DNA of 64,000 nt from a bacterium (lineage in GTDB: Bacteria; Patescibacteriota; Microgenomatia; JAMCZE01): assembly GCA_021836035.1 (NCBI GenBank), contig JAKBJL010000001.1, positions 44,370-108,369 of the forward strand, given 5' to 3'. The stretch's first letter is position 1, and every line of letters begins with the position of its first letter. A program made the translations under genes and the position numbers. Shown one piece after another: positions 3,622 to 56,009 of the stretch. Below the pieces are notes generated by a model. It was not told the origin of the DNA and made no database searches. It saw only the letters and a list, made by a program, of their open reading frames with translations.

Positions 3622-3780
3622 CCAAAAAGGGTAACAACCGCTGGGGGCCCAAAAGCGTTGCGCGGCCCCTCTCTTTTAAATAACCAGAGGAAAAATAGAA
3701 AAAGGGTGAGCTCCTGAAGCGATACCGTCGTCATAGCGAAGCCAGCGTTTTGGGAATGGGTGGCTGGGACCCTTGCCTTG
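3622..3780 (+). repeat. MITE-like intergenic repeat, copy A (divergent subtype shared with copy C)
   Basis: Begins AAAAGGGTAACAACCGCTGGGGGCCC and ends GGGTGGCTGGGACCCTTGCC. Positions 3644-3774 are nearly identical to 7567-7696. Confidence 0.7.
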
Positions 3781-3783
3781 ATA

Positions 3784-4860
3784 TTACTTCAGAAACAAGA
3801 GCGGATTGACGGCGCTACCCCCGCTGTAGACGGTGAAATGAAGGTGCGGACCGGTAGATCTCCCCGTAGAACCCATCTTCCCCAGAATTTCCCCGCGTCC
3901 CAGGTTATCACCGATATTGACAAAGATTTGAGAAAGATGCCCGTAGAGCGTCCGTAATCCGTTGCCATGGTCAATAATCACATGATAGCCATAATCATGA
4001 TTGTCATAAAGAACCGTCACCACCCGCCCGGCGTCCGCGGCTCGTACCGGCGTACCGATGCCATTGGCAATATCCGTGCCGTTATGGTACCAGGAAAAAT
4101 ATTGGGTGATAATCCCGTTGGTCGGCCAGACTAAAGTTCCGCTGCCGTGGGCAAAAAGGCCTACACTGGGGGTTGAACGTACCGGAGGCGGGGCAGCCAC
4201 TTCCGGAGGAACACCTCCCGGAATAACCAAATCCTGACCGGCTGCCAGGGTAAACTTCTCATCATCAACAAAATTGTTATACGGCCAGTCAATAATCGGC
4301 TGGGAGCTGGGCAAGCCGTATTTTTTCGCCAGGGAATAGATCGTGTCCCCGCTCTTAACCTTAAGGATAACCCCGGAAACCGGCGGAATTTTAATCTTGT
4401 CCCCCGGATGCAGATTATTAATGGAAATGTCAGAATTTAAATATTTGATCGAGTCCACATCAACCCCGAATTTTTTGGCAATAGCGGAAAGTGTATCCCC
4501 GCCCCGGACTTCGTATTCTTCCACATCCCGGCGGGGCTTCTCTGACTCAATGGTGGTAGTCGAGATGGTGGCGGCCGTCACCGTATTCAGTACTTCGGAG
4601 GGCGAAGCCGTCTCGCTACCGCCCGTTGCTTTGGTCGGGTAACGGTTATATAGAATCGGGGCCAAAACCATCGCCAAAACCAGAAGCGAGACCATCCCTA
4701 AATGCAAAAAGGGACGCTGATAAGCGCCCCTTCTGACGATTAATTTGGCTACCAAACGACCTTTACCGGCGTCAAATAAACTCCCCAGGATTCGCCCCTT
4801 CTTCGTAGCGTACCAGCCGATAAACCTCAGGCACTCCGCAATTTCCATATTAACCGACAT
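3784..4860 (-). CDS. LysM-domain M23 family metallopeptidase (peptidoglycan endopeptidase)
   Basis: Two LysM repeats (GDTLSAIAKKFGV, GDTIYSLAKKYGL). M23 motifs HNGTDIA and GSTGRSTGPHLHF. N-terminal TM anchor. Confidence 0.85.
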   Translation of the reverse strand: MSVNMEIAECLRFIGWYATKKGRILGSLFDAGKGRLVAKLIVRRGAYQRPFLHLGMVSLLVLAMVLAPILYNRYPTKATGGSETASPSEVLNTVTAATISTTTIESEKPRRDVEEYEVRGGDTLSAIAKKFGVDVDSIKYLNSDISINNLHPGDKIKIPPVSGVILKVKSGDTIYSLAKKYGLPSSQPIIDWPYNNFVDDEKFTLAAGQDLVIPGGVPPEVAAPPPVRSTPSVGLFAHGSGTLVWPTNGIITQYFSWYHNGTDIANGIGTPVRAADAGRVVTVLYDNHDYGYHVIIDHGNGLRTLYGHLSQIFVNIGDNLGRGEILGKMGSTGRSTGPHLHFTVYSGGSAVNPLLFLK

Positions 4861-4871
4861 GTGGTGCTTAG

Positions 4872-4900
4872 ACTTTACCCTGTGAAAATATCGCTGTCAA
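4872..4900 (-). promoter_or_regulatory. sigma70-like promoter for the M23 peptidase gene (TTGACA-17 nt-TAAAGT), near-leaderless
   Basis: Minus strand reads TTGACAGCGATATTTTCACAGGGTAAAGT. The -10 ends about 12 nt before the ATG at 4860. Confidence 0.4.
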
Positions 4901-4952
4901 GGAAGTCACAATAGCATCAAAAGGCATCATTTATCGATTGCGAATCTTTGGT

Positions 4953-5125
4953 TTAAAAAGGGTGGTAACTTACGGTGCGTGGCTTCTGGCAACACAAAAG
5001 CGTACGAACCCTCTCCCTTTTTGTTAAATCTGTTAAATTTACCAAGATATAGATACAAGAAACAAGACGCCAGGGGTGTATGGGAGTTAGCTTATCGGGG
5101 CTGCGGGTTGCCAGGGTCCTTGCCT
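4953..5125 (+). repeat. MITE-like intergenic repeat, copy B
   Basis: TTTAAAAAGGGTGGTAACTTACGG ... ACACAAAAGCGTACGAACCC ... GGGGCTGCGGGTTGCCAGGGTCC. Flanked by TTTAAAAA on the left and TTAAAAA on the right. Confidence 0.7.
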
Positions 5126-5133
5126 TAAAAAGG

Positions 5134-6561
5134 CTATCCGACTTTTAAACTTTTGAGGAAATCGGCATTGCTTTCTGTCTTCTCTAGCCGCCCGATCAGA
5201 GCTTCTGTCCGCTCTCCTTCCGTAAGCATGTCCAGCATGCGGACTAAAAGTTTGCGGGTAGCCATCTCTTCTTCCGTAAAAAGCCGCTCATCGTTTCTGG
5301 TACCGCTCTGGGCAACATCGATTGCCGGGTAAATCCTCCGCTCGGCCAGTTTCCGATCCAGGTGCAATTCCATATTGCCTGTGCCCTTGAATTCCTCATA
5401 AATTAAATCATCCATCCGGGAGTCGGTACTTACTAAAGCGGTGCCGATAATCGTCAAGCTGCCGCCGTCTTCCACACACCGGGCCGCGCCCAGGAACCTC
5501 TTAGCCGGATAAAGCGCCGTCGGATCAAATCCGCCGGAAAGGGTCCGCCCCGAAGAAGGCATAGCCAGGTTATAAGCCCGGGCAAGACGGGTAATCGAGT
5601 CCAACAGCATGACCACGTTTCTCCCGATCTCCACCAGGCGTTTAGCTCTTTCTATAGCGACTTCTGCCGCCCGGATTTGGGTTTGCGGCGGATCATCAAA
5701 ATTGGAAGCAATTACTTCGGCCTTTGTGCTCCGGCTGATATCCGTGACTTCCTCGGGTCTTTCCCCCACCAAAGCGATAATCAGGTGATAATCAGGATAA
5801 TTGGTAGTTATCGCGTTTGCGATCTCTTTTAGGAGCCAGGTCTTACCCGCTTTGGGTGGCGAAACAATCATCCCCCGTTGCCCGCGGCCGATCGGGGCTA
5901 TCAGATCAATAATACGAGTGCTAAGTGGTGTTTTTCCCGTCTCCAGGCGCAATTGCTTATCGGGGTAGATCGGCACCAGCTCGTCAAACCAGGGACGGGT
6001 TAAGGCCTGATCCGCGTCCACTCCGTTAACCTTATCAACACGCAGCAATCCGTAATATCTTTCCGTCTCTTTTGGGGCTCTTCCCAACCCCAAGACAAAA
6101 TCGCCGGGGCGCAAACTAAAGCGCCGGATCTGCGAACTACTGATATAAACATCCCGCTCCGAGGGCACGAATTTTGGCCGCAAAAAGCCGTGTCCTTCCG
6201 GCTGGATATCCAATACCCCGGAAAGTTCCATCGTCGGGACTCCGGCTTCGATATCGTTAAGCGGCCGGCTATAAACTTGCCCCGGGCCCGCGGAAGGACC
6301 TTGCCTTGGACTTGCTCCGGTTTGATCGGGGCTTGCCGAAGGAGCTTGTCCTGAGCCCACCGAAGGAATTGGGGCTTCAGCTTGCGCTAACGGCCTTAAC
6401 GGTTCTGCCGGAGCGACGGTTGCTGAATTGGGATTGGCAGCGGGAGTACCAACCAGGTCCTGAACACTAACCGGACCGCCGCTTCTCCCCGAAAGACGGG
6501 AAGGACGGCGGCTGGTGCCTGTTCGGCTACTTCTGAAACTACCTGTGTATTTTAGAGGCAT
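5134..6561 (-). CDS. rho: transcription termination factor Rho
   Basis: Low-complexity N-terminal extension, RNA-binding region (GVLDIQPEGHGFLR), Walker A GQRGMIVSPPKAGKT, and a conserved C-terminal ATPase. Confidence 0.9.
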   Translation of the reverse strand: MPLKYTGSFRSSRTGTSRRPSRLSGRSGGPVSVQDLVGTPAANPNSATVAPAEPLRPLAQAEAPIPSVGSGQAPSASPDQTGASPRQGPSAGPGQVYSRPLNDIEAGVPTMELSGVLDIQPEGHGFLRPKFVPSERDVYISSSQIRRFSLRPGDFVLGLGRAPKETERYYGLLRVDKVNGVDADQALTRPWFDELVPIYPDKQLRLETGKTPLSTRIIDLIAPIGRGQRGMIVSPPKAGKTWLLKEIANAITTNYPDYHLIIALVGERPEEVTDISRSTKAEVIASNFDDPPQTQIRAAEVAIERAKRLVEIGRNVVMLLDSITRLARAYNLAMPSSGRTLSGGFDPTALYPAKRFLGAARCVEDGGSLTIIGTALVSTDSRMDDLIYEEFKGTGNMELHLDRKLAERRIYPAIDVAQSGTRNDERLFTEEEMATRKLLVRMLDMLTEGERTEALIGRLEKTESNADFLKSLKVG

Positions 6562-7353: not shown

Positions 7354-7549
7354 ATTTAGGCTTCTATATTAGCTATAACACCAGAGCCACTTCTTGTCAA
7401 GTCCGATAGTAAATATCATCCTGTATTATTATATATCCGATAGTTATTATAAAGAGGAGAAGGGCATAATAACGCCCAATTTCTAATATCAAGTTCCTAA
7501 TTTCTAATTGTGGACAAGTTGGGGATATACTTCTCTCTTTAGTTTTAAG

Positions 7550-7700
7550 GGGTTAACAGCCGCCGGGGGCCCAAAAGCGTTGCGCGGCCCCTCTCTTTTA
7601 AATAACCAGAGGAAAAATAGAAAAAGGGTGAGCTCCTGAAGCGATACCGTCGTCATAGCGAAGCCAGCGTTTTGGGAATGGGTGGCTGGGACCCTTAAAA
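7550..7700 (+). repeat. MITE-like intergenic repeat, copy C (near-identical to copy A)
   Basis: 7567-7696 matches 3644-3774 almost base for base. Confidence 0.7.
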
Positions 7701-7717
7701 TAAAATAGGGAGTTTAA

Positions 7718-9079
7718 CTATAATTTAAAACGGTTAAGGGAAGAGAGGTTTTCGGGAGAAATAATATTGTTTAACTTCAAAGCTTTCGCTTCCTTGAGGC
7801 GCTTCTCTAACGAGTTGACCCGGCGGACATTGCCCAACAGATCCAGCTCCCCGATCGCGACCGTTTTGGCCGGTAAAGCTTTATCGCGGAAGCTGGAAAG
7901 GACAGCGAGAGCTACCGGAAGATCCACCGCCGGTTCTTCGATTTTAATGCCTCCGGCGACATTAAGATAAATATCCTCTTTATACAAAGGCAGGGAAAGC
8001 CGTTTTTGTAATACCGCGACAATCATCTGCAGCCTCTGATAGTCGATACCGTTGCCGACGCGTCTAGGGGCCGGTAAGGTGGTATTGGTTGTCAAAGCCT
8101 GGATTTCTACCAGCATCGGCCTGGTTCCTTCCATAGCCACGGTTAAGCAGCTTCCCGGTTTCGTTCCGTGTGCCTCGGTAACGAATCCCTGTAAATCAGT
8201 AGCGGGCCGCAGCCCGCTGTCGCTCATCTCAAATACACCCACCTCGTCCGTCGGTCCGAAACGATTCTTGGTTGCCCGGATCAAGCGGAGATTTTGAAAC
8301 CTCTCCCCCTCCAAATTTAAGACGGTATCCACGGCGTGTTCCAATACTTTCGGCCCGGCGATGGTACCCTCTTTTGTCACATGCCCTACCAGGAAAAGCG
8401 GTACCCCGTATGGTTTGGTAGCCATAATCAGCCTGGAAGCCGTTTCCCGTACCTGGCCGACTGAACCGGCGCCTCCGGAAAGGTCTCCTGTCGTCATAGT
8501 TTGGATCGAATCCACAATTACCAACGGTCCAACCCCGTCTTTATTTTTTCCTTGTCCTTGCACCTGTTCTTGAATTTGTTCCGCTACGCGGTCCGCGTCC
8601 GTTTCTTCTAAAACTAAAATTTGTCCGCTTTTTATCCCCAACCTTTCGGCCCTGATTTTTATTTGCCCGGCGCTTTCTTCCCCGGCGACATAAAGGACGG
8701 TTCCTTCCCTGCCGTTACCCCAATGGCTGGCCAGTTCCAAAAGAAGGGTGCTTTTCCCGATGCCCGGTTCCCCGGCTAAAAGCACCGCCATTCCGGGGAC
8801 AATTCCCCCGCCCAAGGCGCGGTCCAACTCCGTAATCCCCGTCTCTGCCCGAGTCATTTTCTTTGCCTCGACATCCGCAAGTTTTATTATTCTCCCGCTA
8901 CCGCCGGTTCGTCTGTTTCGAGCTTTGAGCTTCGAGCTTTGAGTTTCTACCATCGTTTCCACCAAACTACTCCACGCCCCGCAATTCGGGCATTTACCCA
9001 GATAAGAAGGGCTGACATAGCCGCATTGCTGGCAGACAAAATCAGAGGAAGCTTTCATTCCAAGCGTATTATAGTTCAA
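7718..9079 (-). CDS. radA: DNA repair protein RadA/Sms
   Basis: N-terminal C4 zinc ribbon (CQQCGY...CPNCGAW), Walker A GEPGIGKST, KNRFG motif, and a Lon-protease-like C-terminal domain. Confidence 0.9.
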   Translation of the reverse strand: MNYNTLGMKASSDFVCQQCGYVSPSYLGKCPNCGAWSSLVETMVETQSSKLKARNRRTGGSGRIIKLADVEAKKMTRAETGITELDRALGGGIVPGMAVLLAGEPGIGKSTLLLELASHWGNGREGTVLYVAGEESAGQIKIRAERLGIKSGQILVLEETDADRVAEQIQEQVQGQGKNKDGVGPLVIVDSIQTMTTGDLSGGAGSVGQVRETASRLIMATKPYGVPLFLVGHVTKEGTIAGPKVLEHAVDTVLNLEGERFQNLRLIRATKNRFGPTDEVGVFEMSDSGLRPATDLQGFVTEAHGTKPGSCLTVAMEGTRPMLVEIQALTTNTTLPAPRRVGNGIDYQRLQMIVAVLQKRLSLPLYKEDIYLNVAGGIKIEEPAVDLPVALAVLSSFRDKALPAKTVAIGELDLLGNVRRVNSLEKRLKEAKALKLNNIISPENLSSLNRFKL

Positions 9080-16209: not shown

Positions 16210-16304
16210 TACTAGCAATAAATGCCGAGAAATGGCTGGAAAATAAATAGAATAATTTACGCGAATTAAAAACGAATTCACACGAACACTTTGATTTTAA
16301 AAAG

Positions 16305-16450
16305 GGTGGTAACCAGCGGGGAGCCCCATTAGGCGTATGAGCCCCCTCTCCATTCGCAAGAGTAGAAAGACTTCAACTAAAAAGGAAAGTGACTAAACCA
16401 GTCGTGTGGGCTAAATAGCTTGGTTGGGACCGCTGATTGCCGGGGCTCCT
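16305..16450 (+). repeat. MITE-like intergenic repeat, copy D
   Basis: TTTTAAAAAGGGTGGTAACCAGCGGGG ... GGGACCGCTGATTGCCGGGGCTCC. TTAAAA on both flanks. Confidence 0.65.
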
Positions 16451-16460
16451 AAATTAAAAA

Positions 16461-16784
16461 CTACGATATCAACGTAGAGTCTATTTGTTTTTTGAGGCTG
16501 TCTTTATCCTGATAGCCGACCATCTGGGCTACCGGCTGCCCGCCTTTAAAAATTAAGAGCGTCGGGATGCTCATCACGCCGTACTTTATCGCCGACTGCT
16601 GGTTGGCGTCCACATCCAGCTTACCGATAACCAGTTTCCCCTCATAATCCTTGGACAATTCCTCTAAAACCGGGGCGATCATCCGACAGGGTCCGCACCA
16701 GGAAGCCCAAAAATCTACCAAAATCGGTACCGGGCTCTTTTTTACCTCTTCGTCAAAATTGGCATCAGTCAAAGTCAGATCCAT
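16461..16784 (-). CDS. trxA: thioredoxin
   Basis: WASWCGPCRMIAP active site. Start taken at MDLTLTDANF. Confidence 0.85.
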   Translation of the reverse strand: MDLTLTDANFDEEVKKSPVPILVDFWASWCGPCRMIAPVLEELSKDYEGKLVIGKLDVDANQQSAIKYGVMSIPTLLIFKGGQPVAQMVGYQDKDSLKKQIDSTLIS

Positions 16785-16825
16785 GGTCGTTATTTTAATC
16801 AAAAAAAATTGTCCGTCAAGAGGGA

Positions 16826-17221
16826 CTAAAACCAAAGCAACAGCAAGCCTACTCCGATCAGTCCCGCGGCAATCCGGCGTTCCTGGCGCTCCGTAATTGC
16901 TAAAAAGGCATGGACCATCATGGCTAGAACCATCCCCTTCCCCATCATCGAGCCGCTGGAAGTAACGACAAAAACCGCCAAAATAAAGACCAGCATGAAG
17001 CCCCGGAAATTATGGAAAAAATCGGGCTGTGTTCCTAAGTATTTAGCCAGCACTTGATCCAAATCCAAAAGAAAAGTCCCGACAACGATCCCTCCGGCAA
17101 AAAATAAAAGATACCAGCTGAGGCCGTGGAATAAGGCCAGTAGCCCCCCGGCGACCAGCAGAAGCAAAGCTTCCCAAGGCAAAATTCCCTTAAGTTGTCC
17201 CAATTCCCGTTTAAGATCCAT
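16826..17221 (-). CDS. hypothetical integral membrane protein (131 aa, about 4 TM)
   Basis: Hydrophobicity pattern. Start overlaps the stop of the upstream LPXTG protein gene by 11 nt. Confidence 0.5.
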   Translation of the reverse strand: MDLKRELGQLKGILPWEALLLLVAGGLLALFHGLSWYLLFFAGGIVVGTFLLDLDQVLAKYLGTQPDFFHNFRGFMLVFILAVFVVTSSGSMMGKGMVLAMMVHAFLAITERQERRIAAGLIGVGLLLLWF

Positions 17222-22740: not shown

Positions 22741-22784
22741 AAAATAATTTTACGCTCTTTTCCCGCAAATTGTATAATTCTCAT

Positions 22785-23514: not shown

Positions 23515-23672
23515 TTTAGAAAGGGTGCCAACCACCGAGAATCCCAAAAACACATGCGTATCCCCCTCTTTTAAATAACAAAGGGGAAAGAGAATAGAAT
23601 AAAGAAAAACTTTTAAAAGAATTGTCATGGTGGCTAACCGGCTTTCGGGGGTGGGTAGCTGGCGGGATCCTT
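23515..23672 (+). repeat. MITE-like intergenic repeat, copy E (divergent)
   Basis: TTTTAGAAAGGGTGCCAACC ... GGTAGCTGGCGGGATCC, flanked by TTGAATTAAAA. Confidence 0.6.
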
Positions 23673-23688
23673 GAATTAAAATACGAAA

Positions 23689-29380: not shown

Positions 29381-29580
29381 ACAGCGGTTAGTATACCTTA
29401 GTTTTAACCGGGGTGACACCCGACAGGAGCCCATAAAAAATGTCTCCGGGCATCTCTCTCTAAATAGGTTTACATAAATTAACTTTTGAAAAAGATTCTA
29501 AAAATTGATTGGCTGTTATGGCGAGGAGGGTTTTGGGGGCTATTGGGTGGTATGACCCGAATTATAAATTATGATTTTAA

Positions 29581-31516: not shown

Positions 31517-31665
31517 TTTAAAAAGGGTGACAATTAGCGCGGCACCCTAAAAACGTACGTACTCCCTCCCTCTTCGCTAAATAAAACAATTCTCTTAAGG
31601 AAAAACAAACGGGTTGGTTGTATGGGCGAGTCGGCTTATTGGGACTGCGAGCTACCAGGACCCTT
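31517..31665 (+). repeat. MITE-like intergenic repeat, copy F (starts about 10 nt from the ftsH ATG)
   Basis: CTTAATTTTAAAAAGGGTGACAATTAGCGCGG ... GGGACTGCGAGCTACCAGGACCC. Confidence 0.65.
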
Positions 31666-31668
31666 AAC

Positions 31669-32016
31669 TCACCTTACCACCGAACCAGTTACTACATCCT
31701 CATCGAAATTATACAGGACTGCTTTCTCGTCTGAGGCGACCGCCAGAACCATCCCCGCGCTCTCGTATTCTTTCTCTCCGATCTTAAACCTTTTCGGTGC
31801 CAAGTTTACCACAAATGCCAACTTTCTGCCGGCCAACTTTTCCGGTGGATACCAAGGCTTTATCCCCGCACAAATGGTTCTTTTTCCGAGTTCCACACCA
31901 AAGTCCACTACCATCCTGACCAATTTATCGCTGCCCTCAACAGCCCCGCTCTCCACTACCTCCCCGACCCGTAAATCCAGTTTAGAAAAATCCGCGTAAT
32001 CAATTTGTGGTTTCAT
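31669..32016 (-). CDS. free-standing tRNA-binding domain protein (CsaA/Trbp111/EMAP-like OB fold)
   Basis: DLRVGEVVE...KL....VDFG....R.I..GI motif of the MetRS C-terminal/CsaA family. Overlaps the trpS stop by 17 nt. Confidence 0.75.
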   Translation of the reverse strand: MKPQIDYADFSKLDLRVGEVVESGAVEGSDKLVRMVVDFGVELGKRTICAGIKPWYPPEKLAGRKLAFVVNLAPKRFKIGEKEYESAGMVLAVASDEKAVLYNFDEDVVTGSVVR

Positions 32017-36552: not shown

Positions 36553-36559
36553 GTTAGAA

Positions 36560-36787
36560 AGTGATTTCTGATTTCTTGCACTCCCCCAACAGAGTAGGAA
36601 CGGAGGCCATAGGGGCCGCTGTTTTCGTTATGTCATCGGCCCTTTCGTTGGGTGCAACTCTGCTTCCAATTACCGGAGCAAGAGTGCCAAGAGCGCCTCC
36701 CTTAAGGTAAACCGGGGGTTCGTCACGGGTATAACCAAAGGCGGCTTTAAGGAGTGTCGGTTCAACTTCTGCGGGTAGCGGTTTCTA
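36560..36787 (-). pseudogene. possible gene remnant: 76-codon open frame without a start
   Basis: Protein-like translation (KPLPAEVEPTLLKAAFGYTRDEPPVYLKGGALGTLAPVIGSRVAPNERADD) bounded upstream by a stop, with no Met. Confidence 0.25.
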
Positions 36788-36889
36788 AATTTATATTGCG
36801 GATTCATTCCTTGTCTATTACACCTTGGGTGTCAGAAAATTTGGGCGGAGGGCATTGAACCCTATCACCAGATATGACCCAATAATAAT

Positions 36890-37360
36890 ATGGACGAGGA
36901 TTCGCAACATACAAACGAATTTGGAGAAATTGAGGCATTTAAGGATACGGAATACTGGTTCAAGAAAGATTTCCAAACAATAAAGAGGTCCCCTACCGCC
37001 ACTCTCAAAGCAATACCACTAATCTTGCTGGCTACTTACTTATTTTCATTGTTGATGACCCAATTGGGCGGGACTGGGGCTGATTTTCCGTTAGCTTTTA
37101 TTTACTCTCTTGTCTTCTCACCAATTTTCTTGCTTGGATATTTAATGTTTCATATTATTGCCACTAAGGGGTATGACATTGATCCCTATGCCGGAACTCA
37201 CATTAACTCACCACAACACGTAAACCGCTTCTCGGTTAGTTATATTATGAATTCCGATATGCCGACCGGACGAAAAATAATGTTTTTATTAAGATACGCA
37301 TTTTATGTTTTGCTAGCAATAGGACTCCTCTTAAATGTCTTTGTGGGTTTAAAGAAATAA
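36890..37360 (+). CDS. hypothetical membrane protein (156 aa), AT-rich (about 38% GC) relative to the region
   Basis: ORF with TM segments and a clear compositional difference. Immediately upstream of tRNA-Met. Confidence 0.5.
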   Translation: MDEDSQHTNEFGEIEAFKDTEYWFKKDFQTIKRSPTATLKAIPLILLATYLFSLLMTQLGGTGADFPLAFIYSLVFSPIFLLGYLMFHIIATKGYDIDPYAGTHINSPQHVNRFSVSYIMNSDMPTGRKIMFLLRYAFYVLLAIGLLLNVFVGLKK

Positions 37361-38226: not shown

Positions 38227-39072
38227 ATGCACGACTGGCAGAAAAAATTTCTCGAATACTTAAAATCAAAATCCCGGGCCACGGCTACCGTCATCGCCTA
38301 CGGTAAAGATATCGGTCAGCTCTTAGAGTACTTGGAACAGCAGGGAAAGTCAAACCTGGCGGAAATTACGACTGCCGATTTAAACGGTTTTTTGGGGAAA
38401 CTGGCCAAAGAAAACTACACTCCGAAATCGATCAGCCGCAAAATCAATTCCCTGAAAACTTTTTTCCGCTTTTTGGCAGCCGAGAAAGTAATTGCCGATA
38501 ACCCCGCCGCCGGCATCTCTCATCCAAAGTTCGAGACCAAACCCCCGCGGATTCTCTCCCCCCTGGAATACCGGGCGCTCCGCGACGCTTGCCGCGATGA
38601 CTTTAGAATTGCCGCCGTGGTAGAACTTTTGCTCCAAACCGGCATGCGCATCGGAGAATTAGCCGCCCTAGAGCTAGATAGCGTCAACGAACACGAACTG
38701 AAAGTCCCCCCGATTGAAGGGCACCCGGAAAGAACCGTTCCGTTAAATAAAGCCGCCAAGGGTTCGCTCGATCGCTACCTCTCTATCCGCCCCAGGGTAA
38801 AATCACCCGCCCTTTTTATTACTAAAACCGGCCGGCCGCTGCTTATTAGAAACATCCGCACGGCGATTGACCGCTACTTCCGCATCGCCGGGATCAAAGA
38901 AGCCAAAGTCAACGATCTGCGGCACACCTTTATCGCCCACCACCTGGCCGCCGGCGCTTCCCCGGTTCTGGTTTCCCGCCTGGTCGGACATAAAAGAATA
39001 GCCACGACGGAAAAATATCTGGAATTTATTAAAGACATGCCCGCGGAGAAGATTAAACTGGAAGAGCTCTAA
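38227..39072 (+). CDS. tyrosine site-specific recombinase, XerC/XerD family
   Basis: N-terminal SAM-like core-binding domain. Catalytic R..(K)..HxxR..H..Y region: DLRHTFIAHHL and GHKRIATTEKYL. Confidence 0.85.
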   Translation: MHDWQKKFLEYLKSKSRATATVIAYGKDIGQLLEYLEQQGKSNLAEITTADLNGFLGKLAKENYTPKSISRKINSLKTFFRFLAAEKVIADNPAAGISHPKFETKPPRILSPLEYRALRDACRDDFRIAAVVELLLQTGMRIGELAALELDSVNEHELKVPPIEGHPERTVPLNKAAKGSLDRYLSIRPRVKSPALFITKTGRPLLIRNIRTAIDRYFRIAGIKEAKVNDLRHTFIAHHLAAGASPVLVSRLVGHKRIATTEKYLEFIKDMPAEKIKLEEL

Positions 39073-41061: not shown

Positions 41062-43437
41062 TTATAGGTGAGAACGGGCTGATATTTCCGCCTCGACCGT
41101 CCGGACATCCCGGCCGTATTTCAGGGCCGAAAGTTCTTTGATCATGCCCGCGACGCGGGGATTACGCGACTTATTGATCCGCTCAAAGTCATGGTTGATT
41201 TCGATACTGAACGGCGGCAGGGGTTCGTTATCAACAACCGTCTTAACATAGGCATTGAAAGCTTCCACCTTCAAAAGGTCCTGCTCGTTAAAGGTGGGGG
41301 TATATTCATGGGCCAAAAACTGAGCATCGTTCACCCCGGTCCGAAAAGTAATTTTCGTCCCGACATTGCCGAAGACCGCGTTTCTGACCTCCTCCTCCAT
41401 TTGGGAAATAAACTGGTTGGCGACCGTCAAATTCAGGCGGTATTTGCGAGCCTCGGAAAGAATGGTGGCAAAATCCGGGGTAGCAAAATTCTGAAACTCG
41501 TCAACGTAAAGATAAAAGTCCCGCCGCTGCTCCATGGGAACATTGGTCCGGCTCATGGCGGCGGTTAAAATTTTCGGAATCAACAAGAGCCCCAGGAAGT
41601 TGCTGTTCTCTTCCCCGATAAGGCCCTTGGCCAGGTTAATAATGAGAATTTTGCCTTCGTCCATTACCTGCCGGAAATCAAAAGAGCTTTTGGACTGCCC
41701 GATCATATTGCGCATCAGTTTGTTCGTCGTAAAGCGACCGAATTTAGAGACAATATAATCTAGGACTTCGCTTTTGTGGAACTCGGCAGTCTGGGCGATT
41801 TGGTCGGTCCAATAACGACGGATAATCGGGTCAGAAACTTTGGGCAATAATTCCTGGACATAGGTCGGATCGGTCAGCGCTCTTTGCACCTCGATAAAGG
41901 TTGTCCCCGGCTGGACCATAACCGTAAGCATCGCGTTTCTGATATTGTGTTCCAGACGGGGGCCCACGATACCGGTCTGATGGGGGTCATACAGTTTGTA
42001 AAACAGGCCGATAATCGAAGTGACGATATAATGCTTCTGCTCCTCGGTATAGGCCTCCATAATGTTTAAACCCATGGGCCGCGCGGTGTTGCTGGGATCA
42101 AAATAGATAACGTCTTCCGCTCTTTCGGGGGGCATCTGCTCCAAGATGGTTTCATAAGTATCGTGGGGATCAATAAAACAAACCCCCTTGCCGGCGCGGA
42201 TATCCTGCAAAATCATCTGGGACATAAGAAGCGATTTGCCGGTACCGGTCGCGCCGACGATATAGACATGTTGCCTCCGGTCGTCGTCGGAAATATAGAC
42301 CGGCCGCTCGTCCCCGCGGTAAACGGATTTCCCGAGATAAAGTCCGCTGCTGGGAATTCCCTGGGGAGCCGGCGCCCGCTTGGCATTAAGCCAATAAATA
42401 TGCGGGGTTTCGACAGCCTTATTGGGGAAATGAAAGAGGGTGGCCAGTTCTTCCGTCGTCAAAACACCCCCAAATTTCAGCATGGGCTGGTAACGGTAGA
42501 CGAAATCCGTCATGAAGTTACCTTGTACCCAGATCTTATCTTTGGTAAAGCCGTTAAGCTCCCCGTTAAATTGCTCAAAAGCTGCTTTAATGTTTCCTAA
42601 AATCATCTTGGCATCCGCCCGGGTTTTTGCCGAGACAACTATTCTTAACGAGAAATTAAAGCCCGGTTTGCCGGTTTTATTCTCGATAGTTTCCAAAGTT
42701 TTAGCGTCCACATTAAATTTAGCCTTTTCCGGATCGGCCTCATTCTTCTTGGTCCGGGAAATATATTTTTTGCCCAGGCTGCGCCACTTATTTTCGGCCG
42801 GGGAAATTAAAAGTTGGATTGCTGCCCCCTCCCCTTCCCCCAGCTTAGCCAGGGCTGAGGTAATCACGGATATGGGGTCAACCGCCAGGTCCTTATAGGT
42901 TTTAAGCGGGAAGTAATAGGAGGAGCGCAGCTTTAACGACAGATAGGCCACTTCCCCGTCTTCGGAAAAGATATTGTAGTCTTCCACCTGTTTGACAATA
43001 GCCCCGGGGTAAGTCCCGTGGATTTGTTTTTCAACCAGATCTTTGACCTGTTCGGAGCAGGAAATATAAAAACGGATGTTCTCGTGTTCCGCGACAATTT
43101 CCAAAGATAAATGTTCCTGGGGGGTTAAAAATGGCAACTTCCACATGGGGCCGCCCTTTTTCAAAGAGTAAAGGGAGGTAAAAAATTGCTCCATGGCGTC
43201 AATTTTTATTTCGTTTTCCCTGGGTACGGCTACCTGTAATAAAACAAAGTCCAGGGCATGCTCTTCGCGTTTACGCCACTTAATAAACTGATAAAACAGA
43301 TAAAGGAAAAGCGCTCCGGCGGCAACAAAAAGCAGCAAAACTACCAAAATGACGGCAAATTCTACCAAGAGGGCCTCGAAATTAGAGAAGAATTCGAAAC
43401 CGGGAGCGGCAGGATACATACTACAATGATAGCACAA
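41062..43437 (-). CDS. T4SS-type P-loop ATPase with N-terminal TM anchor (VirB4/VirD4-TraG-like, FtsK/HerA superfamily)
   Basis: One long hydrophobic N-terminal segment, Walker A VYIVGATGTGKS, Walker B FYLYVDEFQNF. 791 aa. Confidence 0.7.
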   Translation of the reverse strand: MCYHCSMYPAAPGFEFFSNFEALLVEFAVILVVLLLFVAAGALFLYLFYQFIKWRKREEHALDFVLLQVAVPRENEIKIDAMEQFFTSLYSLKKGGPMWKLPFLTPQEHLSLEIVAEHENIRFYISCSEQVKDLVEKQIHGTYPGAIVKQVEDYNIFSEDGEVAYLSLKLRSSYYFPLKTYKDLAVDPISVITSALAKLGEGEGAAIQLLISPAENKWRSLGKKYISRTKKNEADPEKAKFNVDAKTLETIENKTGKPGFNFSLRIVVSAKTRADAKMILGNIKAAFEQFNGELNGFTKDKIWVQGNFMTDFVYRYQPMLKFGGVLTTEELATLFHFPNKAVETPHIYWLNAKRAPAPQGIPSSGLYLGKSVYRGDERPVYISDDDRRQHVYIVGATGTGKSLLMSQMILQDIRAGKGVCFIDPHDTYETILEQMPPERAEDVIYFDPSNTARPMGLNIMEAYTEEQKHYIVTSIIGLFYKLYDPHQTGIVGPRLEHNIRNAMLTVMVQPGTTFIEVQRALTDPTYVQELLPKVSDPIIRRYWTDQIAQTAEFHKSEVLDYIVSKFGRFTTNKLMRNMIGQSKSSFDFRQVMDEGKILIINLAKGLIGEENSNFLGLLLIPKILTAAMSRTNVPMEQRRDFYLYVDEFQNFATPDFATILSEARKYRLNLTVANQFISQMEEEVRNAVFGNVGTKITFRTGVNDAQFLAHEYTPTFNEQDLLKVEAFNAYVKTVVDNEPLPPFSIEINHDFERINKSRNPRVAGMIKELSALKYGRDVRTVEAEISARSHL

Positions 43438-43484: not shown

Positions 43485-43646
43485 CTTTTAAAAGGGTGGT
43501 AACTCGCGGGGCGTTGTCTTTGACAACGCAAAAGCGTGCGAACCCCCACTTTTTTTGCAAGATAAAGTAAAAATCTATTTAAGAAGGGGGGGGCTAAGCC
43601 AGCCGCGCGGGTGAGTTGGTTTATGGGGGCCGCGGGCTACACCCCT
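43485..43646 (+). repeat. MITE-like intergenic repeat, copy G
   Basis: TTTTAAAAGGGTGGTAACTCGCGGGGCGTTGTCTTTGACAACGC ... GGGGGCCGCGGGCTACACCCC, then TAAATTAAGG. Confidence 0.65.
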
Positions 43647-43649
43647 AAA

Positions 43650-44150
43650 TTAAGGTAATTGTTTATCCCTAACTACTGACCCCCTGAAGAATTTGACGAG
43701 GTAACCGGCCTTAAGAAGTTCGTAAATAAACCACTCGGCGAGCCAGCGAAAAGATTTGGAAACGGGGGCTTTTTTGCCTTCCGCTAACTGATCGTCGGTT
43801 AAAACTTTTCCGCGGACGGCAAATTCCGGGATCGCATGGTGTATTGGCGTTTCTGCTACGGCCTGGGGTTTAATACCCATCTCCCTTGCCAAATCCTGCG
43901 GCACCCGCACTTCTCCGCTCTCCACCCGGTCAATACCCAACTCTTCCATTTCCTTCTCTGTTTCCAATTCGTGACCGTAGCTAAGCCAGTACTCATCGCC
44001 TTCCCTTTTAGCAATTTCGTCGGCAACTTTAAGATCCCCCATCTCGCCGACAGATTGGCCAACTTGCTCTTTTTGTAATTGCCCCGCTGAATTTGCGGTA
44101 GCCTTTTTAACAGGAGCGTCGTCTTGGATCGTTACTTTAATTTTACTCAT
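43650..44150 (-). CDS. hypothetical protein (166 aa)
   Basis: ORF immediately upstream of the T4SS-type ATPase. Confidence 0.45.
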   Translation of the reverse strand: MSKIKVTIQDDAPVKKATANSAGQLQKEQVGQSVGEMGDLKVADEIAKREGDEYWLSYGHELETEKEMEELGIDRVESGEVRVPQDLAREMGIKPQAVAETPIHHAIPEFAVRGKVLTDDQLAEGKKAPVSKSFRWLAEWFIYELLKAGYLVKFFRGSVVRDKQLP

Positions 44151-45934: not shown

Positions 45935-46234
45935 ATGGATAGCGGTATGGCTACAAAGGAGTTACCTCAGGAGGTAGAAAGTCATGATTCGCGCTTGCGG
46001 ATTACAGCCCTGCTAACCACTTTCGCGGGAGAGATAGCGGTTTGCGGAGATGCTATCGATATTCTGCAGGAACCGGGGAAACCCCTGCTGCACCTGGTTA
46101 CACCCGTACTACATAAAGCTGCTGAGGCGGGTATCAATCAGGAAACCGCGGCTTTGGGAATTATCGCCTTCTGCCTTCCGCTTATTTTTTATACCGGGAA
46201 AGAACTTTGGCCCTGGGTTAAGGAAAAAAATTAA
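45935..46234 (+). CDS. hypothetical protein (99 aa)
   Basis: ORF only. Confidence 0.3.
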   Translation: MDSGMATKELPQEVESHDSRLRITALLTTFAGEIAVCGDAIDILQEPGKPLLHLVTPVLHKAAEAGINQETAALGIIAFCLPLIFYTGKELWPWVKEKN

Positions 46235-46264
46235 CAAGGCCAAGCCGCGATACTTTGATCTTAG

Positions 46265-46403
46265 AAAGGATAGTAGCCCGCGGGGCGCCCCAAAAACGTA
46301 CGAACCCCCCGCTTTTGCTAAATAAGATTATCTTTGGGAAAAACAAATAAAGTTAGCCGTGTGGGTGAGTTAGCTTCTTGGGGCTGCGGGTTACCGGGAC
46401 CCC
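46265..46403 (+). repeat. MITE-like intergenic repeat, copy H
   Basis: GGATAGTAGCCCGCGGGGCGCCCCAAAAACGTACGAACCCCCC ... GGGGCTGCGGGTTACCGGGACCCC, then AAATTAAGAT. Confidence 0.65.
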
Positions 46404-46586
46404 AAATTAAGATAAAAGCATAAACCAGATCCCGGTTGCCGCCTAAAAATAAATAGGGCCAGTTTATAACCTTAAGTTTTTCGGGGGGCCTTATTGCCCC
46501 AACGCACAGCTGAGAAAATAATGTAATAAGGGTGGCTCATCGCCATCTTTGCGGGGGACTTTGCAAGGGGCGGTATAACAAATCTG

Positions 46587-53303: not shown

Positions 53304-54176
53304 CTACGCTTTTCCCGCAGAACCGAAGAGGGTAATTTTTCTTTCGATAATCTTGCGGACAGCCTCAATCGCCGGTGGCATTAATTTATAAACGGCCCAT
53401 TCGTCGGGATTGCCCTTTAAAACATTTTCCAAATTTTGGCGGAAAGCAATCCGTAACTCGGTATTGACATTTACCTTGACGATCCCCCGTTCGACGGCGC
53501 TCTCAATCTCTTCGGGCGCAATGCCACTGCCGCCGTGGAGCGAGAGAAAAGTTTCCGGCAGGGCACGGGAAACCTCGGTCAGTTTCTCACAATCCAGCTT
53601 CTCGCTGCCGTCCTGATAAACCCCGTGAGCGTTGCCGATAAAAGCGGCAAAAATATCTATCCCTGTTTCTTCGACGAACTCTTTTGCTTTTTGCGGATCA
53701 GTATATTTTTTTTCTAGCCCCTGACCGCGATCCGTTAATTCCCCGTGCAGTTCCGACGTCCCCGGAAAATGATCGATTTCCCCCTCCACCAATACCCCCT
53801 TACTATGAGATTCCCCAACTATCTCCTTTGTAAGCCGGACATTTTCCTCAAAGGGCAACTCAGAACCGTCAAAATGGACCATATCAAAGCCGAGCTCAAT
53901 ACCGGACTTTATTATATCCATATCGCTAGCATGATCCATATTGAGCAATATGGTTATTCCATAATCATCTTTATAATTATTGGCTAGAGATATAAAGTTT
54001 TGCAGTCCGAGGTATTTTATTTCTCCCGGGGAGACTTCAGCGATAATTGGAGCCGAGAGGTTTTTGGCAGCTTCTGCCGCCGCCTGTAAAATCTCTAGGT
54101 TATCGATATTGAATGCTCCCAAAGAAAAGTGTTCCTTTTTGGCCCTCTGTAACCAATCGATTAATCTAGTTTCCAT
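53304..54176 (-). CDS. fba: class II fructose-bisphosphate aldolase
   Basis: LNMDHASD, HFDGS, and His-Gly zinc ligand region of class II FBA. Confidence 0.85.
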   Translation of the reverse strand: METRLIDWLQRAKKEHFSLGAFNIDNLEILQAAAEAAKNLSAPIIAEVSPGEIKYLGLQNFISLANNYKDDYGITILLNMDHASDMDIIKSGIELGFDMVHFDGSELPFEENVRLTKEIVGESHSKGVLVEGEIDHFPGTSELHGELTDRGQGLEKKYTDPQKAKEFVEETGIDIFAAFIGNAHGVYQDGSEKLDCEKLTEVSRALPETFLSLHGGSGIAPEEIESAVERGIVKVNVNTELRIAFRQNLENVLKGNPDEWAVYKLMPPAIEAVRKIIERKITLFGSAGKA

Positions 54177-54196
54177 TTCTACTTAGAAATTGGTAA

Positions 54197-55156
54197 TTAG
54201 GAATTGCTAATTTTATTTTTATCTAAAAGTCCTTCAATCGCCCCTGCCTTCTGTATTACCGATCCGCCGTTCTTCGTCCCCCACCGCAAAGCCATGGCCA
54301 GTTTTTGCCCGTAATCAAGAGCTGCCAATAACCCGCTACTGAAGGCGTCTCCCGCGCCGGTCGCTTCAAAACAGGGTACCGGCGCTGCCGGTTCATAAAA
54401 ATATCTGCCGTTATGCATGGCAAACGCTCCTTCCGGCCCGTTGGTAACTACCACGATCTTCGGTCCCAACTTATTTATACTTACCAGCATCTCCTTCGCT
54501 CTTTTTTCTTTCTCCCCGGCTTTAAGCTTTAAACTTTGGGCCCTAAGCAGGGTTTCCGCCTCTTCCCAGTTTACAATTAATACTTCCGTCCGCGTTAATA
54601 TGGTTTTCAGGTAATCCGCTCCCTTTTTAATATCCGCCATCGAAGGATTAAAAGCAATCTTGACTTCCTTCGGGCAATTGTTCACTAATCCGTAAATTTT
54701 TGCCGAATCCCGTCCGGCGGAACTGGTAATGTAAATCCATTTAGACGGAGGGATAACGGCAACTAAGTCTTCGCCGGGTTCATGATAAGTGAGAATGGTC
54801 CGCTCCCCTTTAAAAACGATAATCGCCGAAAGATTGGATTGCCTTTTGGGCTCGACTGAGGAATAAGTCAGGTCCACATTGTTCAGAAGCAATTGTTTTT
54901 TAATCCAGGCCCCGCGGTCGTCATCGCCGAAAATTGTCATTAGGCCCGTGCTCAAACCCAGCCGGGAAAGCCCGACGGAAACGTTAGCGGCGTTGCCTCC
55001 CAGCGACCACCCAATTTTCTCGACCGGGATCTTTTGCCCGTAACCCAATTCCAGCTTGCAATCTTCCCCGCCCGCGTTACACTCCACCCCCGCCTGATCC
55101 ACAAACAAAAATAAATCCCGTGTCGCGTCGCCGATACAAATAAAATCTAAGGCCAT
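54197..55156 (-). CDS. PfkB-family carbohydrate or nucleoside kinase
   Basis: N-terminal GDATRD, GG..N motif, and C-terminal TGAGDAF anion hole. Confidence 0.8.
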   Translation of the reverse strand: MALDFICIGDATRDLFLFVDQAGVECNAGGEDCKLELGYGQKIPVEKIGWSLGGNAANVSVGLSRLGLSTGLMTIFGDDDRGAWIKKQLLLNNVDLTYSSVEPKRQSNLSAIIVFKGERTILTYHEPGEDLVAVIPPSKWIYITSSAGRDSAKIYGLVNNCPKEVKIAFNPSMADIKKGADYLKTILTRTEVLIVNWEEAETLLRAQSLKLKAGEKEKRAKEMLVSINKLGPKIVVVTNGPEGAFAMHNGRYFYEPAAPVPCFEATGAGDAFSSGLLAALDYGQKLAMALRWGTKNGGSVIQKAGAIEGLLDKNKISNS

Positions 55157-55831
55157 CTATTCATCTCCCTTTCCGCCCGTCTGGTTGTCCCCCTCTAAAA
55201 TTTCGACCGCGTGGCTGGTCCCAATCCGGTCCGCGCCGGCTTTAATAAAGGTTACCGCCTGCTCGTAGGTTTCAATCCCGCCGGCCACCTTGATCATTAG
55301 CTTGTTGGCAATCGCCTCCCGAACAAGCTTTACATCTTCAACGGTAGCTCCCCGCGGGCCCATGCCGGAGCAGGTCTTAAAAAAATCCGCCCCGGAATCG
55401 ACCATTAAATCGGCCGTTTTCTTAATCTCGTCCGGTGTCAAATATCCGGTCTCGGGAATAAATTTAATCACAATTTTGGGGTTAACCCGCCGGGCGGATT
55501 CGACCACCGCTCTCATTTCCACTAAACTTTCCGCCCACTTCCCACTTTTGATATACCCCACATTCAGAGAAACATCCAATTCGTCAGCCCCCAGACTGGC
55601 GTAACTTTCCGCACAGCCGGATTTTACCGACAAAGTTTCCTGCCCCAAAGGGAAAGCAACCACTGTCCCCACTCTCACTCCCTGCTCTTTAGCCAGCTGA
55701 ATATAGAAAGGGTTCACGAAGGCTGAGTTAAAACCGAATTCTTTTACCTTGGCGCACAAGGCAACTATCTCGCTTTCAGTGGAGTTGGGATGGTGATTGG
55801 CTAGATCGAGATAGGCGGGAAGATTATCCAT
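55157..55831 (-). CDS. deoC: deoxyribose-phosphate aldolase
   Basis: DeoC family with Schiff-base Lys context IKVAGGIET. Confidence 0.85.
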   Translation of the reverse strand: MDNLPAYLDLANHHPNSTESEIVALCAKVKEFGFNSAFVNPFYIQLAKEQGVRVGTVVAFPLGQETLSVKSGCAESYASLGADELDVSLNVGYIKSGKWAESLVEMRAVVESARRVNPKIVIKFIPETGYLTPDEIKKTADLMVDSGADFFKTCSGMGPRGATVEDVKLVREAIANKLMIKVAGGIETYEQAVTFIKAGADRIGTSHAVEILEGDNQTGGKGDE

Positions 55832-55852
55832 TTAAATTATTTCCTTAGTTAT

Positions 55853-56009
55853 TGAAGGGGTGGCAACTCGCGGGGCGCTGCCCCCGACAACACAAAAACC
55901 TACGAACCCCCCTTTTTGCTAAATAAAATAAGATTATCTCCGGGAAAAACAAATAAAGTTAGCCATGCGGGTGAGTTAGCTTCTTGGGGCTGCGGGTTAC
56001 CAGGGCCCC
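55853..56009 (+). repeat. MITE-like intergenic repeat, copy I
   Basis: GGGGTGGCAACTCGCGGGGCGCTGCCCCCGACAACACAAAAACCTACGAACCCCCC ... GGGGCTGCGGGTTACCAGGGCCCC, then AAATTAAGAT. Confidence 0.7.

Follow-up and report, generated by a model that had tools for sequence, protein, structure and literature searches.

What are the repeated units that stand between housekeeping genes (rho, radA, recF, ftsH and nrd) in the 64-kb stretch of DNA analysed here (hereafter the window): small mobile elements, genes for a structured RNA, or signals that the host keeps at gene ends? Our analyses indicate that the family is genuine and specific to its lineage, and that it is related to the small mobile repeats already described (MITE/ERIC-like); its host is a small, streamlined bacterium represented by a Microgenomates-like Patescibacteria MAG. 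More specifically, we consider it, with somewhat better than even confidence, to be a MITE/ERIC-like repeat of some age that probably forms a 3' hairpin in co-transcribed RNA.

Copies of the family and their extent

The sequence examined was 76 kb of one genome, comprising the window and 12.5 kb beside it, and copies were searched for using a covariance model (R1, filters off, E ≤ 10) and nhmmer (--max). In the window, both programs recovered nine strong copies (106-141 bits; E values of 1e-24 to 1e-32 for R1 and 1e-27 to 1e-37 for nhmmer) and two diverged ones (J and K), as follows.

Copy A, 3622..3782, + strand: R1 107.4 bits, nhmmer 5e-28; A/C/E subgroup; 1 nt past the stop of an M23 peptidase gene (3784-4860, -), with the 3' end of tRNA-Ala (3532-3603, +) 19 nt away.
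Copy B, 4953..5129, + strand: R1 132.1 bits; Rho stop codon (5134) on one side and, on the other, the M23 gene's promoter-like sequence (TTGACA-17-TAAAGT, 4900-4872, - strand).
Copy C, 7544..7704, + strand: R1 106.2 bits; 13 nt past the radA stop (7718-9079, -).
Copy D, 16297..16458, + strand: R1 125 bits; 2 nt past the stop of a thioredoxin gene (16461-16835, -); the T-tail of a small terminator-like hairpin before it (16477-16461, -) enters the element end.
Copy E, 23516..23680, + strand: R1 128.2 bits; between convergent genes, its left CCTTAATT motif containing the TAA stop of an NAD-kinase-like gene (22770-23513, +) and its right end 8 nt from the recF stop (23689, -).
Copy J (diverged), 29404..29566, + strand: R1 31.8 bits, E 4.5e-6, nhmmer 3.6e-4; flanked by the ftsH stop (29581) and a 5'-3' exonuclease gene.
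Copy F, 31518..31673, + strand: R1 126.2 bits; between a tRNA-binding-domain gene and ftsH, containing the stop TGA of the upstream gene (31669-31671); the ftsH ATG (31506) lies 3 nt past the terminal AAGG.
Copy G, 43487..43654, + strand: R1 132.7 bits; its terminal CTTAATT contains the stop TAA of a gene at 43650-44150 (-), and the next gene (41062-43437, TraG/VirD4-like) begins 50 nt past its left end.
Copy H, 46261..46412, + strand: R1 138.2 bits; the ribonucleotide reductase stop (46587) lies 175 nt upstream, and a small + strand ORF (45935-46234) ends about 20-27 nt away; on the - strand, a terminator-like hairpin of small size (46437-46423, -) immediately precedes the right end of the copy.
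Copy I, 55851..56018, + strand: R1 141.1 bits; 4 nt past the stop of a LOG-family gene (56023-56580, -), its left end about 12-20 nt ahead of the ATG of a DeoC-family gene (55831).
Copy K (weak, degenerate), 61700..61866, + strand: R1 14.6 bits, E 0.07, nhmmer 2.9e-4 over 61722-61812; the sole copy amid + strand genes (GH18, 60210-61493, and a PBP1A paralogue).

Nine of these were already in the initial annotation (at 3622, 4953, 7550, 16305, 23515, 31517, 43485, 46265 and 55853), which missed two and added two, at 33783 and 36476, that received no score from either program. It had also described one copy as inverted, but all 11 copies in the window are on the + strand.

All 11 units measure 150-180 bp (152-177 bp by R1); they add up to 1.8 kb (2.8% of the window), at a density of about one copy per 6 kb. 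As in MITEs, they are dispersed in AT-rich intergenic DNA, short (<500 bp) and without coding capacity, stop-free frames not being conserved across copies. ORFs were called only in A and C, and a search of 5.8 billion proteins returned just these two copies. The intergenic placement claimed earlier was borne out, as no copy lies in a gene body, and copies E, F and G hold a flanking gene's stop codon within their terminal CCTTAA motif.

Pairwise identity between most copies is 45-68%, and two pairs are closer: the inner 146 nt of copy A are 98% identical to copy C, while H and I share 87% identity overall and 94% across the right 96 nt. The assembly breaks at these recent copies. Logan contig L012 begins within I, and L002 breaks within C and A, as expected at a near-identical repeat (the break coordinates in C and A are derived ones). 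Most copies would be old according to their identities, and A/C and H/I may have been copied or gene-converted recently. We note that 45-68% identity is low for a MITE family.

Hairpin architecture and strand preference

Each unit is an imperfect long palindrome, or hairpin, with terminal arms of about 35 nt (CCTTAATTTTAAAAAGGGTGGTAAC.../...GTTACCGGGACCCTTAAATTAAGG) that correspond to the imperfect terminal inverted repeats (TIRs) of MITEs. The arm consensus is CCTTAATTTTAAAAAGGGTGGTAACyCGCGGGG on the left and CCCCGCrGGTTACCrGGACCCTTAAATTAAGG on the right. Between the arms lie a semi-conserved middle and then a variable AT-rich apex; the central third varies in length and sequence. The arm and core strings given in the initial annotation do occur, with copies G, H and I matching them most closely, and even copy K has CCTTAATTTTA and the CCCCTCCTTTTTAACTAAACCGGGG hairpin motif in common with the family.

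Pairing between the arms is register-specific, with 84.9% of cells paired versus at most 60.7% when the partners are slid. In helix 2, both sides change in seven of nine pairs, and the observed covariation was reached by none of 500 shuffles. This co-evolution suggests either that the hairpin itself is under constraint or that template switching corrects quasi-palindromes. Covarying arms are unexpected if a transposase reads the arm sequence.

A hairpin that may be constrained raises the question of an RNA product, and a structured sRNA had been offered as an alternative from the start. A family of sRNA genes, or an undescribed structured RNA with its own promoter, would fit the conserved helical layout and some compensatory changes, as well as the G·U pairs of inner helix 4 (10:2 favouring the + strand) and the + strand MFE folds, of which the terminal stem closes 8/9. 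Some MITEs are known to yield sRNAs as well (PMC10969869). Nevertheless, the terminal stem has no strand asymmetry (G·U versus A·C 15:14, i.e., 15 G·U on the + strand and 14 on the - strand), and most copies have MFE z-scores close to zero (mostly -1.2 to +1.5; copy G, -3.0 on + and -3.6 on -), meaning that stability is mostly no better than that of shuffled sequence. Such a family is also at odds with the variable central third and with the absence of the element from the nearest relatives. Furthermore, no promoter- or terminator-like site was found at a fixed position common to the copies, and in Rfam 15 the elements had no match even at E ≤ 10, only tRNAs reaching the gathering threshold. 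The balanced G·U/A·C counts and shuffled-like stability argue against a one-strand RNA gene, and there is no sign of a new kind of RNA gene; positive support for the sRNA alternative was not obtained, and we give it very little credence.

Target sites, transposase and empty sites

Prokaryotic MITEs have TIRs and direct repeats that fade with age, occupy AT-rich intergenic sites, give stem-loop transcripts and have known promoter, terminator and RNase effects (PMC10969869). The initial annotation had called the family MITE-like, and much of that reading stands: the units are short, non-coding, dispersed, intergenic, lineage-specific and bounded by imperfect TIRs. What did not appear was either of the two usual proofs, a target-site duplication or, in the 76 kb, a transposase with matching ends. 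A TTAAAA target-site duplication had been proposed, but the longest direct matches between the left and right junctions of the same copy averaged 5.8 nt, versus 5.5 nt in a between-copy control (left of X against right of Y), with a maximum of 9 in both comparisons. As the matches are no longer within than between copies, the TTAAAA motif belongs to the shared palindromic termini, and the TTAA or TA at the junctions is likewise palindromic and common to all copies. The lack of a copy-specific duplication does not exclude a MITE origin, because direct repeats fade in old MITEs (PMC10969869).

A check for a cognate insertion sequence or transposase with the same ends returned none in the 76 kb. 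The ends of a nearby IS1595 transposase are unrelated to those of the element. An integron attC site, which would follow cassette ORFs beside an intI gene, was rejected: the arms read GGTAAC ... GTTACC where RYYYAAC ... GTTRRRY is required, and ACC is not RRR. The genes flanking the copies are housekeeping ones (rho, radA, recF, ftsH, nrd), and the sole integrase-family gene is XerC/D-like (38227-39072).

Comparison with relatives supported the claim of lineage specificity. All four orthologous sites that could be compared are empty, in relatives at only 70% protein identity, so the difference records gain or loss and not transposition itself. Sites A and B are empty in one relative (contig L007), where the Rho-M23 spacer of site B is just 72 nt, and sites F and J are empty in another (L013), with spacers of 51 and 48 nt. 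R1 found no copy in L005, L007 or L013; its sole hit, a weak hairpin of 12 bits in L005, is not at a corresponding position. True matches were also absent from GTDB representatives, JGI metagenomes, IMG/VR, plasmids and phages.

The lack of target-site duplications could also suit a REPIN-like or IS200/IS605-like mover of single-stranded DNA, whose Y1/RAYT-type tyrosine transposase recognises the hairpin and not the arm sequence. This would explain why the arms covary without an RNA-strand preference, and a strand bias tied to replication direction: the strand that carries 11/11 copies shows negative GC skew over the whole window, and K has the + orientation like the others despite lying among + strand genes. 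On the other hand, replication strand is separable from transcription direction only by K, which is degenerate. No Y1 or RAYT domain occurs among the ORFs scanned in the 76 kb, and neither a conserved 5' GTAG-type tetranucleotide nor a fixed target tetramer is evident in the flanks. The architecture differs as well: REP units are 20-40 nt and IS200/IS605 hairpins are subterminal, whereas the units here span 150-180 bp and are bounded on both sides by their arms. We regard such a mover as very unlikely. According to the MITE/ERIC reading, the units would instead be non-autonomous elements spread in trans by a transposase encoded outside the accessible sequence.

Position at gene ends and comparison with known repeats

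Where the copies sit is strongly patterned. In 9/10 copies that follow a minus-strand gene, 0-14 nt separate the upstream stop codon from the right end. On the - strand, the stem is followed by a run of at least four T in five of the 11 copies and of three T in two more, while on the + strand no copy has a run of three or more. Copies C, I, J and K have no run or an interrupted one, E and H have a weak one, and erosion is seen in the youngest pair (TTTCT in H, TTC in I). A consensus terminator scan makes no call on the terminal stem, because it closes a loop of about 100 nt. Genes begin 5-20 nt past copies F, I and J, and therefore transcription must pass through or restart there.

The MITE/ERIC reading accommodates this pattern if copies persist only where a gene is not parted from its promoter or ribosome-binding site; survival only at harmless sites would explain the positions just past stop codons. 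Lying inside transcription units, the copies are probably transcribed with the upstream gene and would form a 3' hairpin. The hairpin of the sense (minus) strand, together with its T3-5 run (7/11 copies), may dampen read-through or shield the 3' end. The terminator idea itself is weak, considering the eroded T-run in H/I, the genes 5-20 nt past F, I and J, and the mostly shuffled-like fold stability.

The same positions could reflect a 3'-end module under host selection, either never mobile or having lost its mobility. Its sense-strand transcript would fold into a long stem with U residues after it and act as a terminator, an attenuator or a block to 3' exonucleases. Some copies would also restart transcription of the next gene, from a promoter made of the left arm (TTGCCA/TTACCA/TTGTCA) and, 18 nt away, a flanking TA-rich hexamer. 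The single orientation, the proximity to stop codons, the sense-strand T-run and the covarying arms are in line with this, and SPRITE and ERIC are precedents (PMC10969869). Canonical terminator-like sites, moreover, are not enriched in this DNA (34 versus 27.8, 3 versus 3.8 and 3 versus 5.6 expected), and a promoter-like GTGTCA-18-TATACT spans the left end of copy J on the - strand. However, the T-run is lost or weak in the six copies listed above, the terminal stem does not favour - strand G·U, that stem closes only 4-5/9 minus-strand MFE folds, and z-scores are weak. Only one copy passed the promoter scan, and relatives get by without it at these four sites. We therefore consider this module unlikely.

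Still less conventional, and in our estimate distinctly unlikely, is a domesticated, structure-constrained punctuation module, in which a long hairpin at the stop codon ends or insulates transcription, perhaps having spread by a hairpin-specific single-stranded DNA mechanism. Such spread would account for the strand bias of 11/11 copies and for the missing target duplications. Selection on the hairpin, whose arms covary despite 45-68% identity, would maintain the module, and some copies would also supply a stop codon, a ribosome-binding AAGG or a -35 box to neighbouring genes.

The old MITE/ERIC-like repeat that we favour has several counterparts among known systems. REPINs are hairpin-forming intergenic repeats that, like this family, have compensatory stem changes and no target-site duplication. 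They are shorter, built of two 20-40-nt REPs and linked to a RAYT gene, none of which was seen in the 76 kb. The hairpin of SPRITE is a short canonical terminator, whereas the stem here closes a loop of about 100 nt and its T-run is conserved in only about half of the copies. SPRITE nevertheless resembles the family as an interspersed repeat with a terminator-like hairpin and T-run after genes (PMC10969869).

Correia elements (CREE/NEMIS, Neisseria) and RUP (Streptococcus pneumoniae), which are IS630-type MITEs, are similar in size (100-200 bp) and have inverted ends of about 26 nt or longer. They also share AT-rich intergenic sites and high density, their ends can supply promoter hexamers and their transcripts fold into hairpins (PMC10969869); TA or TTAA at many junctions of the family is a further point of likeness. 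For Correia and RUP, a TA duplication can be demonstrated and an IS relative is known, neither of which could be shown for the present family. Copies of Correia, moreover, are near-identical and found in either orientation, whereas those here are diverged and in one orientation.

ERIC/IRU elements of enterobacteria (127-bp imperfect palindromes) belong to another phylum and have no sequence similarity to the family, which is far more diverged (45-68%) and seen in one orientation only. Nevertheless, they are like it in being whole-unit palindromes of similar size, non-coding, and located in intergenic spacers that are transcribed, frequently at the 3' ends of genes; their effects on mRNA are orientation-dependent (PMC10969869).

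Members and anatomy of the repeat family

Repeat detection in the window directly recovered a family of hairpin-forming intergenic repeats of 150-180 bp. We built a covariance model (R1) from nine copies aligned over ~160 nt and searched the window with filters off. The nine copies, A to I, scored 106-141 bits, and two further copies were found:

29404-29566, + strand: copy J, diverged, 31.8 bits with R1
61700-61866, + strand: copy K, weak, 14.6 bits with R1

The same eleven copies, and no others at E < 0.1 in the window, were returned by nhmmer --max. Together they sum to 1800 nt (2.8% of the window), and no additional copies were detected in the adjoining 5 kb on the left (L001) or 7.5 kb on the right (L011). 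The initial annotation had described a dense repeat family here, and nine of its listed copies were confirmed by both R1 and nhmmer; two copies had been overlooked, and two others, at 33783 and 36476, were left unscored by R1 and nhmmer --max and are thus non-members. It had also proposed a common orientation with one inverted copy. The common orientation stands, as all 11 copies are on the plus strand, but no inverted copy was found. The rejected partial copy at 36476 falls inside a 432-nt gap without a convincing ORF (36458-36889, between a PMT_2-type glycosyltransferase gene and the gene at 36890-37360); this gap has no Rfam match and no excess structure, its fold scoring z -0.27 (+) and +1.0 (-) against shuffles.

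According to the flanks, read copy by copy, the family-wide similarity begins with C(C/T)TT(A/G)(A/G)TTTTAAAAAGGGTGG and stops with GGGACCC(C/T)(T/A)AAATTAAG(G/A). These left and right ends are mutual inverted repeats, and in short form the outer bounds of the element are CCTTAATTTTAAAAAGGGTGG ... CCACCCTTTAAATTAAGG. The interior has four parts:

Interior of the element
Part 1: arms GGTAACyCGCGG / CCGCrGGTTACC
Part 2: optional small left-arm hairpin, in copies B, G and I
Part 3: semi-conserved segment pair, CAAAArCGTACGAACCCCC and GGGTGAGTTAGCTTnTTGGGG
Part 4: variable, AT-rich apex; frequently a C-run/G-run hairpin whose loop is TTTTnnTAAATAA

Most copy pairs share 45-68% identity, and the copies fall into two looser groups, A/C/E and B/D/F/G/H/I. 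Two pairs are recent: A and C are 91% identical overall and 98% across the inner 146 nt (3629-3774 versus 7551-7696), while H and I are 87% identical overall and 94% across the right 96 nt (46320-46415 versus 55926-56021). As the left arm and outermost ends are far more diverged in both pairs and the interior and right arm near-identical, the alignments suggest partial gene conversion between copies as a likelier origin of this pattern than clean whole-unit transposition. A 50-aa ORF is encoded in A and C, and a protein search with it matched these two only, with no further copies. In independent Logan assemblies of the same organism, contigs break inside A and C, which form the 98%-identical pair, and inside I (both ends of L002, one end of L003 and the start of L012). 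MAG assembly of this lineage would therefore be affected, and the repeat limits the assembly contiguity of its host.

The window also contains a second, protein-coding kind of repetition:

56648-58900 and ~61957-64476: PBP1A-type genes (transglycosylase + transpeptidase), 5.7 kb apart

With 72-79% nucleotide identity in several blocks (repeat families D7, D9-D11 and D14), these genes are tandem paralogues; between them lie a 400-aa gene without a Pfam match and a GH18 gene.

Hairpin structure and position at gene ends

RNAalifold predicted the terminal stem on both strands. In the alignment of the copies (A2), 84.9% of cells paired in register; sliding the partner by 1-3 columns lowered this to 60.7% or less. 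Both sides had changed in 7 of 9 pairs of the inner terminal helix, and the observed covariation was reached in none of 500 column shuffles. Hence, each arm is a better match to its partner in the same copy than to arms from other copies. The strand counts were balanced in the terminal stem, where G·U on the plus strand and G·U on the minus strand (A·C on plus) occurred 15 and 14 times; overall, the counts were 28 versus 17 (p = 0.14). Minimum free energies were mostly no better than those of dinucleotide shuffles (z-scores from -3.6 to +1.5), with z < -2 only for C on plus, E on minus, G on both strands and H on minus. The covariation signal gives no indication of an RNA transcribed from a single strand. 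An sRNA gene family, with one fold and one transcript strand, had been offered initially as the alternative to a mobile element; given the strand-symmetric terminal stem, the weak z-scores on both strands and the empty Rfam result, we consider this reading unlikely, and nothing counted in its favor as positive support. Arm covariation with no preferred strand could arise from a constraint on the DNA hairpin or on both transcripts, and would also be compatible with template switching, a neutral mechanism that corrects quasi-palindromes.

No match to the elements was found in Rfam, either at the gathering threshold or at E<=10, and a known RNA family was rejected on this basis. Readings as integron attC sites, CRISPR, tRNA-derived repeats or ribozymes are ruled out by the anatomy together with the absence of Rfam matches. 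No internal promoter or terminator at a fixed position is common to the copies. Elsewhere in the window, ARAGORN identified four tRNAs and a whole-window Rfam search at the gathering threshold reported only two. Two of the predictions are as follows:

34561-34631, + strand: tRNA-Met, in Rfam (42.9 bits) only in a smaller-region search
1963-2036, - strand: tRNA-Ala(GGC), from ARAGORN, never in Rfam output

Their absence from the whole-window Rfam output is probably due to filtering in the large search.

The copies are closely fitted to gene ends. Ten of the 11 follow a minus-strand gene, and in nine of these ten the right end lies 0-14 nt from the stop codon of that upstream gene (only H, at 175 nt, lies farther away). 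The stop codon of the upstream gene is inside the element in F and G, and in E the stop of a converging plus-strand gene is inside the left CCTTAATT. In tandem contexts (n=6), the element is always closer to the upstream stop than to the next start. Copy B is followed by a promoter-like site of the next gene. In F, I and J, only ~3-20 nt separate the terminal AAGG from the start of the next gene, so transcription must traverse the element or restart within it; a consensus promoter-like site across the element end was found in J only. Directly downstream of copy G is the following gene:

41062-43437, - strand: 791-aa TraG/VirD4-like coupling-protein homologue with DUF87/HerA, TraG-D_C and T4SS-DNA_transf domains

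Copies A, B, D, F and G carry 4-5 T after the terminal stem on the sense (minus) strand, and E and H carry 3 T there; no copy has such a run on the plus strand. This DNA shows no enrichment of canonical terminator-like sites. Two small hairpins of this type stand directly before copies in the sense direction:

16461-16477, - strand: terminator-like hairpin before copy D
46423-46437, - strand: terminator-like hairpin before copy H

Their T-tails reach into the element at its outer end, a hint of a preference for AT-rich sequence just after genes; the element may favor such tracts behind existing terminators. Four features, namely strict orientation, stop-codon position, sense-strand T-run and covarying arms, would be compatible with a selected 3'-hairpin function (attenuator, terminator or stabiliser) and also with a hairpin-specific mechanism of ssDNA mobility. 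GC skew is negative across the entire window, where the minus strand carries most genes. Orientation by transcription and orientation by replication are inseparable in these data, because the two coincide at every copy but the degenerate K.

Junctions, relatives and distribution

The TTAAAA-like flanks had been read initially as target-site duplications. We compared the longest direct match between the left and right junction zones of each copy with a control in which the left of one copy was matched to the right of another. Within-copy matches averaged 5.8 nt (9 nt in B and 7 nt in D), and between-copy matches averaged 5.5 nt with a maximum of 9. As the control equals the within-copy match, no copy-specific duplication can be claimed, and the flanking strings belong to the common palindromic termini. 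TTAA or TA occurs exactly at both junctions in 6 of 11 copies and is read equally well as part of the inverted repeat. No transposase was present among ~29 ORFs scanned against Pfam, including those adjoining each copy. One was located ~12 kb left of the window, surrounded by small hypothetical ORFs:

L001 17164-18009: IS1595-family transposase gene (Zn_ribbon_IS1595 + DDE_Tnp_IS1595)

The ends of this IS1595 element do not resemble those of the repeat, and it was rejected as the cognate.

The Rho protein encoded at 5134-6561 (minus strand) has an identical counterpart on contig DAHXMT010000002.1 (343 kb) of MAG GCA_027371575.1, on which the window maps to ~27010-91009. Among named homologues, the best for Rho and FtsH belong to Patescibacteria, Microgenomates and Gottesmanbacteria. 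The closest relatives are only 80% (Rho) and 70% (FtsH) identical, which indicates an isolated lineage. At the rho locus of one relative (L007, Rho 70% identical), the order radA ... rho - M23 peptidase - tRNA - HhH-GPD is kept, the rho-M23 spacer is 72 nt and an antisense tRNA lies 2 nt after the M23 stop; such short spacers mean that sites B and A are empty. Likewise, in the ftsH locus of another (L013, FtsH 70% identical), the gene order is conserved (tRNA-binding gene - ftsH - ... - 5'-3' exonuclease) and the spacers at the orthologous sites are 51 and 48 nt, so sites F and J are empty. R1 found zero copies in these two loci, and L007 and the rho locus of the closest relative (L005, Rho 80% identical) have no intergenic repeat family of their own. 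The rho-M23 spacer of L005 carries a hairpin:

L005 1587-1689: 105-nt hairpin GGGGTCCTGCCAGC...GCTGTCACCCCTTTTTAA, ending GTCACCCCTTTTTAATAAA, between a promoter-like site and the M23 peptidase ATG

Its position differs from that of copy B, and its ends resemble the element arms, with an R1 score of only 12 bits. It is possibly a short relative of the element, inserted elsewhere in the same spacer.

A degenerate 24-nt core pattern, which matches 5 of 9 copies in the window, had one match in GTDB representatives (185,579 species), three in JGI metagenomes and none in IMG/VR. These matches have no R1 score and are chance matches; thus, no true copy was found in the GTDB representatives (among which the host species is evidently not included), JGI metagenomes or IMG/VR. 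BLASTN searches of plasmids and phages with copy I gave no match. Given the empty sites in relatives and the database negatives, the family appears, as far as can be seen from these sequences, to be restricted to the host lineage.

Significance and kind of element

Genomes of Patescibacteria (CPR) are ~1 Mb, densely packed and generally held to be repeat-poor. Here, a repeat makes up ~3% of a 64-kb stretch and sits at the stops and starts of the essential genes rho, ftsH, recF and nrd, where it would influence the transcription of their operons and the annotation of gene ends. If the hairpins are terminators or insulators, they would give access to transcription punctuation in an uncultured phylum in which canonical terminators are seemingly scarce. 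The interest is moderate and comes mainly from the host group and the tight fit to gene boundaries. A full-text literature search yielded no paper on MITEs in Patescibacteria.

We consider the element to be real, previously undescribed and of an ordinary kind. By its anatomy and its gain in one lineage, the family groups with the small, non-autonomous hairpin repeats known from bacteria, that is, MITEs in the broad sense. The original MITE-like reading is retained on these two grounds, but the target-site duplication was absent when tested. We file the family as MITE-like rather than as a proven MITE, since, of two defining MITE features, the duplication was tested without success and a parent IS is absent from the window and the 12.5 kb beside it. 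Functional analogues of the element are ERIC, Correia, RUP and SPRITE (PMC10969869).
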